A stretch of DNA of 64,000 bases from positions 96,001 through 160,000 of the forward strand of contig JAEHCQ010000006.1 of assembly GCA_020696385.1 (NCBI GenBank), in the 5' to 3' direction. Position numbers and translations under genes: made by a program. This stretch comes from Methanobacteriota archaeon. Lineage in GTDB: Archaea; Thermoplasmatota; Thermoplasmata; SG8-5; JAGLSY01. Below the pieces are notes generated by a model. It ran no database searches and was not told the origin of the DNA. It was given only the letters and a program-made list of their open reading frames with translations. Shown piece after piece: positions 17,406-47,171 of this stretch. The first letter of the stretch is position 1, and each line of letters begins with the position of its first letter.

Positions 17406-18413
17406 ATGGAAACTCGTAAAGTACAGGTAACAGGCGGCTCGTCCTTCGTCTTAACATTGCCCAAGGAATGGATAAATTCTGCAAATATAAAGAAAAATGA
17501 TCCACTTGGCGTGATCATCCAGACAGATGGAACTCTCCTGATAACAACACAAGAAACTGGAGAGAAGGCCAGTCTCACAAAGAACTTTCATGTAGATGAT
17601 ATTAAGAATTCATCTCATCTATTTCGACTACTTATTGGAGCCTACATCATGGGTTACACCAACATCGTGGTGTCATCAAAAAGCAATATCGATGGCATGG
17701 TGAGGGACACTGTGACCGAATTTACTCAGATCGCAGTCGGGCCAGAGATAATCGAAGAGGATGCGCATTCCATCACGGTAACTGATTTTCTCAGCCCTAC
17801 GGAGATGCCCTTTAACAAGACCATTCGCAGGATGCATCTATTGGTTCAGACAATGCACAAGGATGCTATGAGAGCCCTGCTGGAGCAGGATCTCACGATC
17901 GCGGAGAATGTCATCAAGAGGGATCAAGATGTAGACCGCCTTGAATGGCTGGTGGCCAGGCAGTCCAATATCGTGATAAGGAATATCAGTATCGCGAAGA
18001 AAATAGGTGTCATGCCGGAAGAGGCCAGCAATTATTATCTTATAAGCCGGGCGATAGAAAGAATTGGGGACCATGCTGTCAAGATCGCGGAGAACATTGA
18101 ACCTCTCACAGATAAGAAGGTCGATCAAAAGCTCATAGCCAAGATAAGCCAGGCCGCGGAGATGGCCCTGGACATATTCAATGGATCAATCAAGGCCTGG
18201 ATCAATAGGGATCTTGACCTGGCTAACAAGAATATAGATGAGAAGAAACATCTGGTCGAGCTGTGTGAGAATATCACCGACCATCCGATAAAGAGCAAAG
18301 GCAGGACATACATCGCGGTAAGCTACATTGCGGAGTCCATCAGAAGGACTGGTGAGTATTCTGGTGGTATATCGGAGATCGTGATAAACAATCTGATAAA
18401 GGATTCGGATTGA
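17406..18413 (+). CDS. phoU: Archaeal phosphate uptake regulator (AbrB-PhoU-PhoU)
   Basis: METRKVQVTGGSSFVLTLPKEW (AbrB/SpoVT domain), RDQDVDRL, IERIGDHA and SIRRTGEY. Confidence 0.92.
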   Translation: METRKVQVTGGSSFVLTLPKEWINSANIKKNDPLGVIIQTDGTLLITTQETGEKASLTKNFHVDDIKNSSHLFRLLIGAYIMGYTNIVVSSKSNIDGMVRDTVTEFTQIAVGPEIIEEDAHSITVTDFLSPTEMPFNKTIRRMHLLVQTMHKDAMRALLEQDLTIAENVIKRDQDVDRLEWLVARQSNIVIRNISIAKKIGVMPEEASNYYLISRAIERIGDHAVKIAENIEPLTDKKVDQKLIAKISQAAEMALDIFNGSIKAWINRDLDLANKNIDEKKHLVELCENITDHPIKSKGRTYIAVSYIAESIRRTGEYSGGISEIVINNLIKDSD

Positions 18414-18451
18414 TTCTGATAGGTTCATATTTATTCGAATGCATTCAGAAT

Positions 18452-18606
18452 AGAGCAGAATACATCAATGTATATGCAGGATGTATTCGAACATGCCCCG
18501 TCTGATTGACCCGATAGCACAAAGGAGGGCGGGGTACTGGATTCGATGAATATTCAAGTGACAGTTCTCTATTCGAAACCCCGTCAGAATGGCGGGGAGG
18601 TCAATC
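18452..18606 (+). repeat. Structured intergenic element, family AB, copy A (IS200/IS605 right-end or omegaRNA-like)
   Basis: Shares CGAACATGCCCCGTC, CGGGGTACT, AGTGACAG, AAACCCCGYCA and GAGGTC in order with the reverse complement of 46981-47152. Ends in GAAACCCCGTCA..TGGCGGGGAGGTCAA. Confidence 0.7.
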
Positions 18607-18674
18607 TCTCTAAAACCCTAAACACCCTCAAAGATAGAAATTTACAACATTTACAACATTAAAATAGAAAAGGG

Positions 18675-18701
18675 ATGCAGGCCGCTTCAAACGGCCTGCA
18701 T
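18675..18701 (-). terminator. Terminator-like hairpin of the por operon
   Basis: ATGCAGGCCG-CTTCAAA-CGGCCTGCAT, followed on the minus strand by a T-rich run. Confidence 0.75.
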
Positions 18702-18724: not shown

Positions 18725-19663
18725 TTATTCTTTCTTATCCTCTGAAAAGGCCTCGACGAACTTCAGGTCCATCTCGTTTTTCTTGTAGGCCCATCCCTGG
18801 ATGATCTTTATCTGCTCATCCGTCAGATGGCGGAAACGACCTTGCATTTTCAGATAATCATCGACTGGCTCCATCTTTGGCTTCACACTGAGGGTGATTA
18901 CCCCATCCACCATCTCGAAGAGGGTCCACATGCCTGAGTTGACCGCTTTCTTTGCGACCTCCACAGTTTTGGCGGTGTCCATTCTCCAGCCTGTTGGGCA
19001 TGGTGCAAATATCTGCAAGTATCGGAAACCTTTCATGTTCTTGGCCTTCTCGATCTTCCTTAGCATATCTGCGGGGTGACCGACACTGGCTGTAGCAACA
19101 TAAGGTACATTGTGAGCCATCATGATCTTTGGGATGTCCTTCTTGAACAATTCTTTTCCACCGATCTTTGTTCCTGCCGGTGTAGTTGTTGTCCAGGCTC
19201 CGAAAGGTGTACTTCCACTCCTCTGGATACCAGTGTTCATGTAAGCCTCATTATCATAGCAGATGTAGAGGATGTCCTCGTTTCTCTCAGCAGCTCCAGA
19301 AAGAGCCTGGAAACCGATATCTCCGGTTCCACCATCTCCTGCAAAGGCCACCACATTGACGTCCTCTTTGCCCTGCTTGTTAAGAGCCTGCTTGATACCA
19401 GCCGCGCATATTGCCGAATTCTCGAACAATACGTGCAGATAAGGGACCTTGAATGCATTGTGTGGATATGTTCCACCGAAGACAAGCAAACAACATGCTG
19501 GGAAGTACGTGACCGTATTTGGTCCAAGTATCTTCATTGCCGCTCTTACAACAATTGGAGCTCCGCATCCGCCACAAGCAGTGTGACCACTTGTGAATAG
19601 TTCTTCTTCTGGTAATGTCTTTATTGTGATACCTATGGTTTCACCCCCCTGGTGCCTATCCAT
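18725..19663 (-). CDS. porB: Pyruvate/2-oxoacid:ferredoxin oxidoreductase beta subunit
   Basis: GHTACGGCG, GDGGTGDIG, YDNEAYMNTGIQRS, APCPTGW. Start uncertain, possibly ATA at 19636. Confidence 0.93.
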   Translation of the reverse strand: MDRHQGGETIGITIKTLPEEELFTSGHTACGGCGAPIVVRAAMKILGPNTVTYFPACCLLVFGGTYPHNAFKVPYLHVLFENSAICAAGIKQALNKQGKEDVNVVAFAGDGGTGDIGFQALSGAAERNEDILYICYDNEAYMNTGIQRSGSTPFGAWTTTTPAGTKIGGKELFKKDIPKIMMAHNVPYVATASVGHPADMLRKIEKAKNMKGFRYLQIFAPCPTGWRMDTAKTVEVAKKAVNSGMWTLFEMVDGVITLSVKPKMEPVDDYLKMQGRFRHLTDEQIKIIQGWAYKKNEMDLKFVEAFSEDKKE

Positions 19664-33688: not shown

Positions 33689-34759
33689 TTATACTCCTTC
33701 GCTTTCGTATTTTCTTACCAGCCTGCGCAAAACTTCAACGCTGAAGCTCTCTTCCTCGAAGGGCTGCTTCCTCATCCTGTGGGGTAGAGCCATTTCCGCG
33801 GCCACGATAACATCGTCCGCAGTGGATTCCAGATGGCCTTCAAGAGCGGCATTGGTCCTCGCTGTCTTCTCAATTATTATATCGCCTCTGTGGCCATCTA
33901 TATTGAAATCAATTCCCAGTCTTGTGATTATCGAGAGTATGTGGTCAGGAGTGGTTACGTTGGCAAGAATTTCCCTCGCTTCCACTATGGTCTTCTTCAA
34001 TTCCTCTATATCGTCCTTGAATTCTTCTCTGAAAAGCCATGGATCACTGGCAAAGGCCTTTGTCTTTTTGATTATCTCCACCCTCTGCTCGACATTGTCA
34101 ATGCCCTTTACCTCTGCCTGAAGTGCCAGACGGTCAAGCAACTGTGGTCTCAATTCTCCTTCTTCAGGGTTCATACTTCCGATAAGAATGAACTTGGATG
34201 GGAAGTTAAGACTTATTCCCTCTCTCTCAACGGTAACAACGCCCATTGCTGCTGCATCCAGAAGCACATCGACTATATTGTCCTCAAGTAGATTTATCTC
34301 ATCCACATACAGGATGCCTCTGTGAGCCTCTGCGAGTATTCCCGGTTCAAAGGCCTTAACACCCTGTGACAGAACTTTTTCGATGTCTATGCTGCCTACA
34401 AGCCGGTCCTCCGTGATATTAAGCGGAAGATCTACCACATTGATCGGAACCCAAGTCTCTTGGATTTCTCCTTTTTCATGCTTGGCCTTACATTCAGTAC
34501 AGTATTTTTCAGGATCCTTTGGGTGACAATTCAATTTGCACCCATCCACGATCAAGATCTCCGGGAGAATATCCAATAAAGCTCTAACAGCGATGGATTT
34601 GGCCGTGCCTTTTTCGCCCCTGATCAATACACCGCCCACATTTGGATTGATGATATTCAGCAAAAGGGCTTTTTTCAAAACTTCCTGGCCAACTATGCCA
34701 TTGAATGGGTATACAACCCTTTTCGGTTGAGCTTTGGATCCACTTTGTTCAGTATCCAT
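33689..34759 (-). CDS. ChlI/BchI-type AAA+ ATPase (soluble)
   Basis: [68 protein letters not shown] and ALPHR. Confidence 0.92.
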
Positions 34760-34772
34760 TTTGCACACCCGC

Positions 34773-37700
34773 TTATTCTAGATCGGCTTCCCTCTTATCA
34801 ATAAGCCTTCTTAGCATTTCTTCACTGAATTCTTCATCATCTTCGAATGCCCTTCTCTTCATCCTGTGTGGCAGGGCCATTGAGGCAGCTACGATAATAT
34901 CTTCTGTGGATGTTTCCATTCTACCTTCAAAGGCCGCGTTTGCACGTGCCGCCCTCTCTATTATGATATCCGCTCTGTGGCCATCGACATTGAAGTCCAT
35001 GCACACCTGAGCAATTAGCTTGAACATCCTTTCTGGAGTGGTCACCTTGGATAGAAGTCCATTCGCTCTTTCTATCTTATCGACCAGTTCTTTCCTCGAT
35101 GCCTCGAACTTCTCCCTGAATTTCAATGGTTCCGAGGTGAACTCTTCACGACGTCTCACAATATCTATCCTCTTACCAACATCTTTGATACCGATAACAT
35201 CAGTCTGTAAAGCGATCCTGTCCAATATCTGTGGTCTCAATTCACCTTCTTCAGGGTTCATACTTCCCACGATCAAGAACCTTGATGGATGGCTCAGACT
35301 GATTCCTTCTCTTTCAATAGTGACAATGCCAGAACCTGCTGCATCAAGTAAAATATCAACTATATAATCATCCAGCAGGTTTATCTCATCAACATACAGG
35401 ACACCTCTATGAGCCTCGGCAAGTATGCCCGGCTCGAAGGATTTCACACCTTCTGTAAGAACTTTCTCGATGTCTATACTTCCAACGAGACGATCTTCAG
35501 TAACATTCAATGGCAGATCAACGACCTGGACCTGTCTCGTGTGGACCTTTAAATTACCTGCCTTGTGTCTGGCCGCACATTCTGTACAGAATTTATCTTC
35601 TTCCTTTGGATCGCAATTGAACTTACATCCTGTGACCTCGATATCTGGAAGGATCTCAGATAGCCCTCTGACCGAAACAGATTTTCCGGTTCCTTTCTGT
35701 CCTCTGATTAGAACCCCGCCGATCTCGGGATAAATTGCATTGAGAGTAAGTGCGCTCTTCATCTTTTCCTGGCCAACCATGGCGGTGAATGGGAATAGAA
35801 CACGCTTCTGCTTACCTCTGTCAAGCATCTTGTTTGCAGCCTCTTTAAGCTTCAGCTTGTCTTCCTCATCCATTCTGTGTCTCATCTGACTTTCCAGCTC
35901 AGTTCGGAGATTCATCATCTCCTGCTCTTTCATTCTTAATTTTTCTCTATTGTCATCGAGCAGGTTCTTCTGAATGTCCAGTTCACTTCTTGAATGGATC
36001 AGTTCCTCTTCCTTCATCTTGAGCTTCTCTTCCTCCTCCATCATCATGTCATCCGCACGTTTCTCCAGCTCTGTCTGGATGAGACTTTCCATCTCTTCTT
36101 CCTTCATACGTAGCTTTTCTTCCTCTTCAGCCATGTGCTGGGTCTTGAGCTCCAATTCTGAACGTATGGCAGAGACCTCTTCCTCCTTCATTCGGAGTTT
36201 CTCTTCTTCCATCTGGATCTGGTCTGAAAGTGATTCTAATTCTGTCTTGATCTCATTGATCTCTTCATCCTTGAGGCGTAATTTCTCTTCCTCTTCCTGG
36301 ATCATCTGTTCATAATTTTCTTCCAGCTTCTGCTGTATCTCCTCAATTTCCTCTTCCTTTTCTAGATAAAGTTCAAGCTCATCTCTTGAATTATCTGCAA
36401 GGACATCTGGGTATTTGAAAAAGATCAGGTAGAAATCAAGGATAATTACCATAATAAGAATGATGAGAGTTATCGTTATAAGGATCAAGTCACCTTGAAG
36501 GAATTGGGAGCTATAGGCCACATCCATACCAAGACCAATGGCCATGAGGCTTGATGGGATCAGTGATATTACGAGATTGGCCTTTCGATCCCAGAAATGA
36601 AGTATGGCGGAGCTCATTGATAATAACATGGCGAGAAGTAGGATCGATATGCTTGAGATATTACCAAAGGTCGGAACAAGGCTGAATGATACGGACGGTA
36701 CTCCCGTATCATTAATCATATTGGTCACTATAAGTATGAATTCGACCAGAACGAATATGGCAAGGAATATGTAGAAAAATAATGTTATCAAACTCATATT
36801 GTAATAATTGAAGAAACCGTCCTTCTTCTTTTCTTCATCAAGTATCTCATCGATCTCTTTCTTCTTTTTTCGATCCCTGATCTTTGCCTCTATCTTGTCT
36901 TTTTTCATCTCGGCCTTTGGATCATATTCATCTTCAAGTCCATCAGAGTCGGGATCTGCATCCATATCTTCTGGATCGTCAATGTCGCCAGCTTTCTTTT
37001 TGCCTTTCTTACCCCATCTGGATGCCTTTTTCTCTTTTGCTTTTGTATCTTCTTTTGGTTCTTCATCCACTTCTATTTGATCGTCATCTGGTGTTTCTTC
37101 CACTTCCTCGTCTGAGACTGTTTCATCTTCAACACCGTCCTCTTCAACAACATCTTCAGTGGTCTCTTCTTCGACCTCTTCTTCATCAATAGTATCTGGC
37201 TCAAATGTTGTAAGGTCTGTATAACAATTAGAACATATCTCGGCTGTTTTATCGATGCCCTTTGCACATGATGGGCATCTCTTTGAATGGGTTAGGTCAT
37301 AGTCACAGATCGGGCACTTTTCACTGTCTGTGTTGATAACATCATCACACGATGGACAGAGCATCTGATCATCCTCTATTATGATTTCCTCGATCTCCTC
37401 ATCTGGATCACTGTCCTCTTCTTCTATGATCTCTTCTTCCTCTTCCACAACCTCATCTTCGGTTATGTCCATTTCCTGGCCAGGATCATCATCATCTGTT
37501 TCATCATCCTCATCAACTGTTAAGGACTCATCTGGAGAATCTCCTCCGATCGTTCCAAGATCCCATTCGCCAGAGCTCTCATCTGATTCTTCTGATGCAA
37601 CCTCTTCTTCCTCTGGGTTTTCTTCGATCTCTTCATCTCCAAGATCAAGGTCTAGCTCTTCTATGGTTGAATCTACATCATCATCAAGATCCAGATCACT

Positions 37701-46870: not shown

Positions 46871-46980
46871 ATACTCACATACCTCCTTAGGTCTGCTATT
46901 TTATAAAGGTTTGGTTTGATTTCATTTGATAAATGGGGTGTGGATGTGTGTAGTGTTCATTTGTTAGATCGTTGGAGAAT

Positions 46981-47152
46981 AAGGACCTCGCCCATCGTTG
47001 AACTCTTGGCGGGGTTTGATTAAAACCACTCGCTTTGAACACGAGTGGTTTAATTATTTACTGAGATATTGCTGTCACTCACTGAGAAATCAAATATAGT
47101 ACCCCGGCCCTGCGTCACTCGGGACGGGGCATGTTCGCATAATCATTGCTCT
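46981..47152 (-). repeat. Structured intergenic element, family AB, copy B
   Basis: The reverse complement carries the same ordered blocks as 18452-18606, with an extra palindrome AAACCACTCG..CGAGTGGTTT (about 47020-47053). Confidence 0.7.
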
Positions 47153-47171
47153 GCTAACACATTGAATTCGA

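Follow-up and report, generated by a model that had tools for sequence, protein, structure and literature searches.

What is the structured element at positions 18452-18606 of the stretch shown above, and does it stand alone? The stretch, hereafter the window, comprises 64,000 nt of contig JAEHCQ010000006.1 from the assembly (G000; 2.28 Mb, about 94.5% complete) of an uncultured seafloor Thermoplasmata archaeon. A first-pass annotation, made from the letters of the window, had described an orphan element (copy A, with a counterpart, copy B) that joins a pseudoknot to an IS200/IS605-type right end, and had offered three options for it, namely, a stand-alone omegaRNA-like guide scaffold, a non-autonomous element, or a new class of noncoding RNA (ncRNA). 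The present analysis favors the second option: copy A is probably a non-autonomous, transposase-less derivative of an IS200/IS605-type transposon, i.e., a palindrome-associated transposable element (PATE), HgcC-like, and a member of a diverged family of 46 loci. In what follows, G001-G003 denote congeners, f1-f4 families of the order (f4 being the sister family), and C-numbers contigs; all assemblies are incomplete metagenome-assembled genomes (MAGs; 74-94%).

The orphan status did not survive a search of the genome. A DNA search of the host's own assembly gave 26 matches, and iterated nhmmer searches gave 35 and then 52 hits, which merged into 46 intergenic loci. The members are 150-290 nt long and too short to code. 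The anatomy of the family was defined by alignments of 21-24 copies, and the limits of copy A were set where these copies cease to be alike and by the information content 5' of the left arm, which places the ends only to about +/-5 nt. Conservation extends about 13 nt further left and about 19 nt further right than first described, so that the original limits were too narrow. The parts of copy A are as follows:

18439..18625, + strand: whole element, copy A, about 187 nt
18439..18494, + strand: left arm, about 55 nt, with the family consensus TGCATATGC-CAGCAGA-GCATATTCTCAACAATGTATATGC-GGATCAATGCGAGCATG
18495..18535, + strand: hairpin 1, CCCCGTC.../...GGCGGGG, nine pairs from G18495-T18535 to T18503-G18527, including three G-T wobbles
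18536..18578, + strand: central region, ACTGGATTCGATGAATATTCAAGTGACAGTTCTCTATTCGAAA, with AGTGACAG at 18557-18564
18579..18597, + strand: terminal hairpin, CCCCGTC-AGAAT-GGCGGGG, with the same stem as hairpin 1; seven pairs, including one G-T wobble
18598..18625, + strand: 3' tail of 28 nt, AGGTCAATCTCTCTAAAACCCTAAACAC, with TCAA at 18601-18604; conserved in most copies of subfamily 1
18504..18511, + strand: proposed pseudoknot, GATTGACC, exact complement of GGTCAATC (18599-18606)

The motifs from which the element was originally recognized (a hairpin, a stem, AGTGACAG, the terminal hairpin, and TCAA) all lie where they had been placed. In copy A, TATTCGAA stands directly before hairpin 1 and a second TATTCGAA before the terminal hairpin, and the left arm holds a 9-bp hairpin (GAATACATC/GATGTATTC, 18458-18466 / 18480-18488) that is peculiar to copy A. 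Hairpin 1 has a loop (18504-18526 in copy A) that varies among copies in sequence and in length, from 13 to 110 nt. The center contains an invariant TGAC (18559-18562), which appears as GTGAC in 19 of 21 copies and as TTGAC in the other two, and most copies also have a small extra hairpin there (CAGAG-TG-CTCTG), which copy A does not have. A reading of CGATGA...GAGTGA in the center as a K-turn or C/D box was dropped, as only about half of the copies contain GATGA. The inverted repeats found within 18425-18640 are all internal and none joins both termini; this absence of terminal inverted repeats sets copy A apart from a miniature inverted-repeat transposable element (MITE). Folded as RNA, the plus strand beats its shuffles (z -2.45; 0 of 200 shuffles as good), and the minus strand is no better than its own (z -0.26). 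Since the G-T wobbles of the stems would turn into C-A mismatches on the opposite strand, the hairpins belong to the plus (top) strand, be it as DNA or as RNA.

The two CCCCGYC/GGCGGGG hairpins far exceed what chance would give. In the 21-copy alignment, 98.9% of cells are paired in hairpin 1 and 98.6% in the terminal hairpin, where two pairs are changed on both sides. The commonest hairpin-1 stem in the own genome plus 20 G002 loci is CCCCGTCTG/AGGGCGGGG (28 cases), and compensatory versions are CCCCAGGGC/GACCTGGGG (4), CCCCGGGGC/GACCCGGGG (2), CCCCGACCC/GGGTCGGGG (1), and CCTCGACCC/GGGTCGGGG (1), all counted by regular expression with 68 matches in total, about 8 of which come from unrelated sequences. 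Because conserved stems were used to find the copies, conservation among paralogs is inflated; a test on orthologous copies is not affected by this. In five orthologous pairs with at least 75% identity, 8 of 171 stem positions were changed versus 160 of 1082 elsewhere (p ~1e-4), i.e., the stems evolve about three times more slowly than the rest of the element, which suggests that the hairpins are still in use. Further copies are numerous and covariation is present, two of the observations whose absence the first-pass annotation would have counted against itself. The pseudoknot fared less well. In copy A the loop and the tail are exactly complementary, as had been claimed, yet only 2 of the 21 subfamily copies, which have one loop type in common, keep the 8-nt complement exactly, and the three pseudoknot helices are 54-70% paired across the 21 copies versus 46-59% when the whole structure is scored with its 3' partners slid. 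The pseudoknot is not a family feature.

Outside the stems, the family is heterogeneous. Two subfamilies have the left half in common and differ in the right half, the second being represented in the window by copy B:

46962..47167, - strand: copy B, second subfamily (nhmmer, C47:142984-143167(-); covariance model, C47:142962-143100(-))

Copy B has the left arm, hairpin 1, and GTGAC center of copy A, followed by an extra hairpin (CACTCG/CGAGTG), the terminal hairpin, and a different tail (TCCTTAT...). Copies are mosaics of modules, and loops, center, and tail vary freely, with insertions of 60-110 nt. The closest paralogs are at most 92% identical, and the best match of copy A is 82.8% identical over 134 nt; as no pair of paralogs exceeds 92%, the family must be old. 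In practice, the 46 loci are better masked as repeats during annotation than called one by one as novel RNA genes.

Several hairpin-1 loops (C44:52430-52680, C46:18599-18835, and C22:159657-159890, as well as C48:120276-120566 and C2:13241-13505) carry insertions of 100-110 nt, which are of two types. The insert of 110 nt is 100% identical between two elements with different left arms and centers, which suggests either that copies have exchanged sequence or that the assembly is affected where a contig ends. The inserts were rejected as independent repeats, as they occur only inside elements. A second short repeat family, roughly CAATTGAT-CTCCCCCACC...CTCCTGCGCTGG...CCCCCTGCTCGGAG, occurs at C11:572400-572520, C44:137920-138010, and C50:520-610, adjoining two elements and the tRNA/tnpA locus described below.

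How far the family extends was assessed with R2, a covariance model of the right half of the element with a hand-set structure; a previous model, R1, derived from a cut alignment, was dropped for its false consensus, which joined hairpin 1 (3' arm) to the terminal hairpin (5' arm). R2 gave 30, 16, 30, and 8 matches in the four genomes of the genus, one match in each of two genomes of the sister family, and none in the 35 other relatives (40 relatives searched). The bare hairpin reaches further. The pattern CCCCGYC-N3-30-GGCGGGG occurs 55, 21, 42, 26, and 45 times in the f1 genomes, 16 to 133 times in ten f4 genomes, and 0-9 times per genome in f2/f3, with a reversed-pattern control of 0-2 per strand in all of these families. 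Counts in the other orders of the class do not rise above background (in the GC-rich G030, 28 versus 18 for the control). The f4 elements follow the same design as copy A, i.e., a long-loop hairpin and, about 65 nt further on, a short one (CCCCGCCTGTGAGGGCGGGG). A scan of 185,579 species genomes with the exact pattern returned only two MAG records, both of the same genus, and a metagenome scan returned two short contigs, on which the neighboring genes are AAA_23 and MgtC. A loose scan of viral contigs yielded 120 candidate loci; as R2 matched none of the 80 examined, they were rejected as chance GC-rich hairpins.

A hairpin that is used twice per element and kept across families raises the question of a partner protein. 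As first reported, the window holds neither tnpA nor tnpB. The single Y1 transposase gene of the assembly lies on another contig than the window (C50:1965-2396, - strand) and encodes an intact TnpA of 143 aa with HUH (DHVH) and Y...Q motifs. This protein scores 119.5 bits on NF033573 (IS200/IS605) and 28.2 bits on NF047646 (REP_Tyr_transpos, RAYT; cut-off 80), and is thus not of the RAYT type. One Y1_Tnp match each was found in G000, G001, and G002, and Y1 transposases are present in 22 of 41 relatives, mostly at 1-3 per genome within the order. Orthologs of the 143-aa TnpA (54-80% aa identity) were found in ten relatives across f1, f3, and f4. A CCTCGTCTGnnAGGGCGGGG hairpin lies within 1.4 kb of tnpA in 6 of the 11 orthologous loci, G000 included, and a variant of it in G002. 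Four of the 11 loci (G000, G011, G014, and G015) have a partial second copy of the tnpA 3' end just downstream, and a neighboring 176-aa gene is linked to tnpA in G000, G001, and G014. The three tnpA loci of G020 have no common DNA similarity and were set aside as belonging to other TnpA lineages. At C50:1-2400, two tRNA genes of 87-88 nt (ARAGORN, tRNA-Phe GAA) lie downstream of tnpA in a duplicated segment of about 320 nt, which includes a repeat of the final ~60 nt of tnpA; the window itself holds neither tRNA nor tmRNA genes.

The other candidate partner is TnpB, which bears on the reading of copy A as a stand-alone omegaRNA-like guide whose 3' flank directs a TnpB-like nuclease or repressor that is encoded elsewhere, on an unassembled stretch, a plasmid, or a virus, or belongs to an unrecognized family. 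The right-end-like terminal hairpin followed by TCAA fits this reading, as do the weak likenesses to HgcC and to tnpB 3' ends of the same class presented below, and TnpB does occur in other orders of the class: it exceeds the cut-off in 8 of 41 genomes, all of them outside the order except for one fragment of 108 aa, among assemblies that are 74-94% complete. The host's own genome, in contrast, has no match to the TnpB domains PF07282 and PF01385, and G001-G003 have no TnpB above the cut-off and two sub-threshold zinc-ribbon hits, which in incomplete assemblies is no proof of absence. The sub-threshold hit of G001 was discarded because it lies inside an open reading frame (ORF) of 462 aa that looks coiled-coil-like, as judged from its translation only. 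With no TnpB domain detected in the genome, the 46 loci have none beside them. The guide itself, which had been proposed to begin near 18605, turned out to be conserved as part of the element: the 21 nt that follow TCAA, searched with as many as 4 mismatches, have genome sites only directly behind terminal hairpins (8 of 8), and the conserved tail matches no viral contig exactly. The true flank (18626-18645) is locus-specific, with no second genome site when up to 3 mismatches are allowed and, again, no exact viral match. An omegaRNA has, furthermore, no need of the left end and left hairpin that the element carries. As no TnpB was detected in the own genome or above the cut-off in the three congeners, a stand-alone guide is very unlikely, and the non-autonomous transposon derivative is preferred over it.

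The likenesses to known RNAs come from relaxed searches. At the gathering thresholds of Rfam nothing was found in the window. The best relaxed match of copy A is to HgcC (RF00062), a family of small RNAs of Methanocaldococcus and Pyrococcus with unknown function, at 17.6 bits (E 0.06) over the full model; the alignment comprises GAAC-CUGCCC..., a terminal hairpin with the same stem (CCCCGCCC-UUUA-GGGCGGGG), GAGGUCA, and a U/A-rich tail. Elements of f4 reach 23-30.5 bits on HgcC; eight of the matches have E values of 0.01 or less and none attains the gathering score of 50, and one f4 locus was matched by both HgcC and R2 (R2, 17.7 bits). This sub-threshold, full-length likeness weakens the case for a new ncRNA class. 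A check for copies at tnpB 3' ends had also been suggested, and such a link appears in weak matches in the same class, not beside any of the 46 loci. In a same-class genome with tnpB, HgcC matches directly behind the tnpB zinc ribbon (19.7 bits, E 0.89), and an R2 match (13.2 bits, E 0.6) lies at the extreme 3' end of a tnpB fragment of a same-class genome (GAAGCACCGTC-ACTTGG-GGCGGTG-TAG/TTCAC). The stem of the latter (CACCGTC/GGCGGTG) is a compensatory version of the family stem, and two copies of the sequence diverge directly after TTCAC. Each of these links is weak; they agree in place and strand. In the literature, HgcC is described as holding the right-end-like tetraloop of RNAs from the 3' ends of IS1341-type tnpB genes, and a PATE-derived RNA, VNG_R0052, is described as expressed in Halobacterium (both PMC4615843).

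The same likeness could be taken to mean that the elements form a multi-copy family of structured RNA genes unrelated to transposons, e.g., regulatory small RNAs driven by a promoter of their own inside the left arm. This arm is conserved and contains AT-rich boxes (GCATAT / TGTATATG) about 20-45 nt before hairpin 1, which are putatively TATA-like, the structure is strand-specific, and the HgcC relatives are recorded in Rfam as RNA genes. Yet the use of one stem twice per element, and its conservation across the order while the rest drifts, point to a hairpin that is recognized by a protein; moreover, the modules are mosaic, elements present in one species are missing in another, and no Rfam family matches at threshold. 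A transposon-unrelated RNA gene family is therefore considered highly improbable.

The position of the elements relative to genes bears on their use by the host. Copy A sits in a spacer of 311 nt between two convergent genes:

17406-18413, + strand: left flanking gene, PhoU/AbrB-domain, with its stop codon 5' of copy A
18725-19663, - strand: right flanking gene, TPP (thiamine pyrophosphate)-dependent enzyme, convergent

Across the 46 loci, with crude ORF calls taken as genes, 21 lie between convergent genes, 18 between tandem genes, 5 between divergent genes, and 2 at contig ends. Elements in tandem settings are co-oriented with the genes in 15 of 18 cases (p 0.0075), and those in convergent settings have their 5' end nearer to the co-oriented stop codon in 16 of 21 cases (p 0.027). 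Orientation is linked neither to the wider gene strand (27/45) nor to GC skew (26/45). Between copy A and the right flanking gene, a terminator-like hairpin (TGCAGGCCG-CTTCAAA-CGGCCTGCA) followed by TATTCTTTGTTTT is found at 18676-18700.

Comparison with congeners showed which parts of such spacers come and go. Copy A is missing from the orthologous G002 spacer, and this element-free spacer keeps the terminator-like hairpin, which is therefore the transcript-end signal of the gene pair itself and not part of copy A. Among 22 elements of G002, 13 are at sites that are occupied in the host's own genome, 3 are clearly absent there, and 6 are undecided. Four pairs of filled and empty sites were aligned, in which the spacers are too diverged to fix the ends to the base. 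The G003 counterpart of the copy A spacer (locus L050, G003:C163, 2180-3065) is filled by some 890 nt of unrelated DNA, in which open frames run on the opposite strand. At several doubly occupied sites (e.g., C44:245396-245601), the G000 and G002 elements are 50-70% identical while their flanks are 88-92% identical; as the elements diverge beyond their flanks, the version of the element at a fixed site differs between species, be it by replacement, conversion, or large indels. Elsewhere in the window, a 300-nt direct repeat that is unrelated to copy A (34074-34373 and 35161-35460; 72% identity, 1087 nt apart) was observed, around which CT-repeat units (35917-36296) are abundant.

These placements give rise to a serious rival explanation, owing to the local orientation bias and the slow stems: the elements may be domesticated, repetitive extragenic palindromic (REP)-like units of 3' untranslated regions (UTRs), which act at the RNA level as a transcript-end stabilizer, a terminator, or a protein-binding site. 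This explanation partly overlaps with the transposon-derived reading. It is in line with the scarcity of divergent loci and the co-orientation, with a bias that is local, and with the threefold slower evolution of the stems at orthologous sites. With at least 13 of 22 G002 elements at sites occupied in G000 and no near-identical paralogs, the copies appear to be old and retained, and copy A, lying between a stop codon and the terminator-like hairpin, would be inside the upstream transcript. On the other hand, the gene pair keeps a terminator of its own, so that copy A is not needed for termination; loops, center, and tail vary freely and take up insertions of 60-110 nt; depletion from divergent spacers is expected of any tolerated insertion; and the stem-based ascertainment contributes to the paralog (not the ortholog) conservation. 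Altogether, purely host-used elements of this kind are rather unlikely as the full explanation, and the PATE-like derivative remains the preferred one.

For the PATE-like derivative, the following mechanism is envisaged. The two near-terminal hairpins would be the left-end and right-end recognition sites of a Y1 HUH transposase, and the resident TnpA would bind them on single-stranded DNA and excise and insert the elements in trans. The elements would be transcribed as structured 3' UTRs or as small RNAs of the HgcC kind, which is probable because most copies lie directly behind the stop codon of a co-oriented gene. TnpA binding and mobilization, transcription, and a benefit to the host are what we infer from the arrangement of the family.

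A number of observations weigh against this reading. Replication-strand bias is typical of IS200/IS605 elements, and it was not seen here, as orientation tracks neither the wider gene strand nor GC skew. No conserved target motif of 4-5 nt was found in the left flanks of 15-19 copies, whose ends are imprecise. The paralog identities give no sign of recent transposition, and the differences in presence between species could be due to gain or deletion alike. No autonomous copy with the same ends was found in the assembly, the congeners, the 185,579 species genomes, or the metagenome and viral contigs. The tnpA gene is not bracketed by element ends; one family-type hairpin lies on one side of it, at 0.05-1.4 kb and on a variable strand. 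Two f3 genomes have a TnpA ortholog and few or no hairpins, and no TnpA ortholog was found in six hairpin-rich genomes (70-92% complete). HgcC matched only one of 20 other copies at E up to 10, and hence 2 of the 21 copies scanned, and all links to HgcC and to tnpB ends stay under the thresholds that are curated or customary (13-30 bits, where the gathering score is 50). Lastly, 8 of the 13 orthologous pairs were dropped from the stem-constraint test for poor alignment.

Among known systems, the closest are the PATEs, derived from IS605/IS1341-type transposons and described in the haloarchaeon Haloquadratum walsbyi (PMC3119063). According to that description, PATEs are noncoding elements without terminal inverted repeats, with like palindromes near both termini and a longer distance on the 5' side; further traits are insertion beside a target of 4-5 nt that is not duplicated, heterogeneous copies, foreign insertions inside a palindrome, and differences between close genomes. 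The present family resembles them in its like near-terminal palindromes, in a 5' distance of about 55 nt that exceeds the 3' distance of 28 nt, in members too short to code, in heterogeneous copies with variable ends beyond the palindromes, in extra DNA inside a palindrome, and in presence/absence between close genomes. It differs in its Thermoplasmata host, in the lack of a detected TnpB in the genus, in the single tnpA, in the lack of a parent insertion sequence with the same ends among the sequences searched, in a stem that is conserved across two families of the order, and in a strong local co-oriented bias behind genes. A relation of its palindromes to IS605-type transposons may be indicated by the two weak tnpB-3'-end matches (13.2 and 19.7 bits). 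Such elements have been known from salt-loving archaea.

With the omegaRNAs/sotRNAs of IS1341-type tnpB genes (PMC4615843), copy A has in common the right-end-type terminal hairpin followed by TCAA, and it is weakly alike same-class tnpB 3' hairpins, including the compensatory CACCGTC/GGCGGTG. Unlike them, it adjoins no tnpB, carries a left end, and is followed after TCAA by a sequence that is conserved rather than locus-specific, which speaks against a lone guide RNA. The comparison with HgcC is similarly two-sided: a full-model alignment, the same terminal stem, GAGGUCA, and scores up to 30.5 bits for sister-family elements stand against a score under the 50-bit gathering threshold in copy A and all its relatives, and matches in 2 of 21 copies.

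The third comparison is with the REP/REPIN-RAYT systems, as presented in PMC3116915, PMC5581495, PMC3733652, and PMC6006769. Like the present family, these bacterial systems combine fixed-stem extragenic hairpins, tens to more than 100 in a genome, with roughly one gene for a Y1 HUH transposase, near which a family-type hairpin lies; they also persist for long, with orthologous copies common to species, and are placed at gene 3' ends. Differences are that the transposase of the archaeon is an ordinary IS200-type TnpA, that its hairpins are in direct order on one strand and do not form an inverted REP doublet, and that its elements, at about 190 nt, are the longer ones and include a left arm and a tail. 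In its treatment of transposase classes, a 2018 survey places the RAYT/REP classes in bacteria only and assigns to archaea only the ordinary IS200 Y1 subclass (PMC6006769); in searches of the RAYT/REPIN and sotRNA/IS1341 literature no description of a REPIN-RAYT-like system in archaea was found, which is not proof of its absence. It may tentatively be proposed, as a possibility well short of an even chance, that the order keeps such a partnership by descent with an ordinary IS200-type transposase, in which one tnpA, adjoined by a partial and decayed copy of its 3' end, maintains tens to more than 100 two-hairpin elements with one fixed stem in 3'-UTR positions, where they give rise to HgcC-type RNAs. 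An order with a fixed-stem hairpin at up to 133 per genome, about one IS200-type transposase, and no TnpB offers in any event a case in which to ask how IS200/IS605 ends last when the RNA-guided nuclease is missing, and bears on whether archaea have an equivalent of REPIN-RAYT and on the nature of the HgcC RNAs. If real, the partnership would be the first long-term case of its kind among archaea, and the HgcC RNAs of 2002 would gain an origin and a partner protein.

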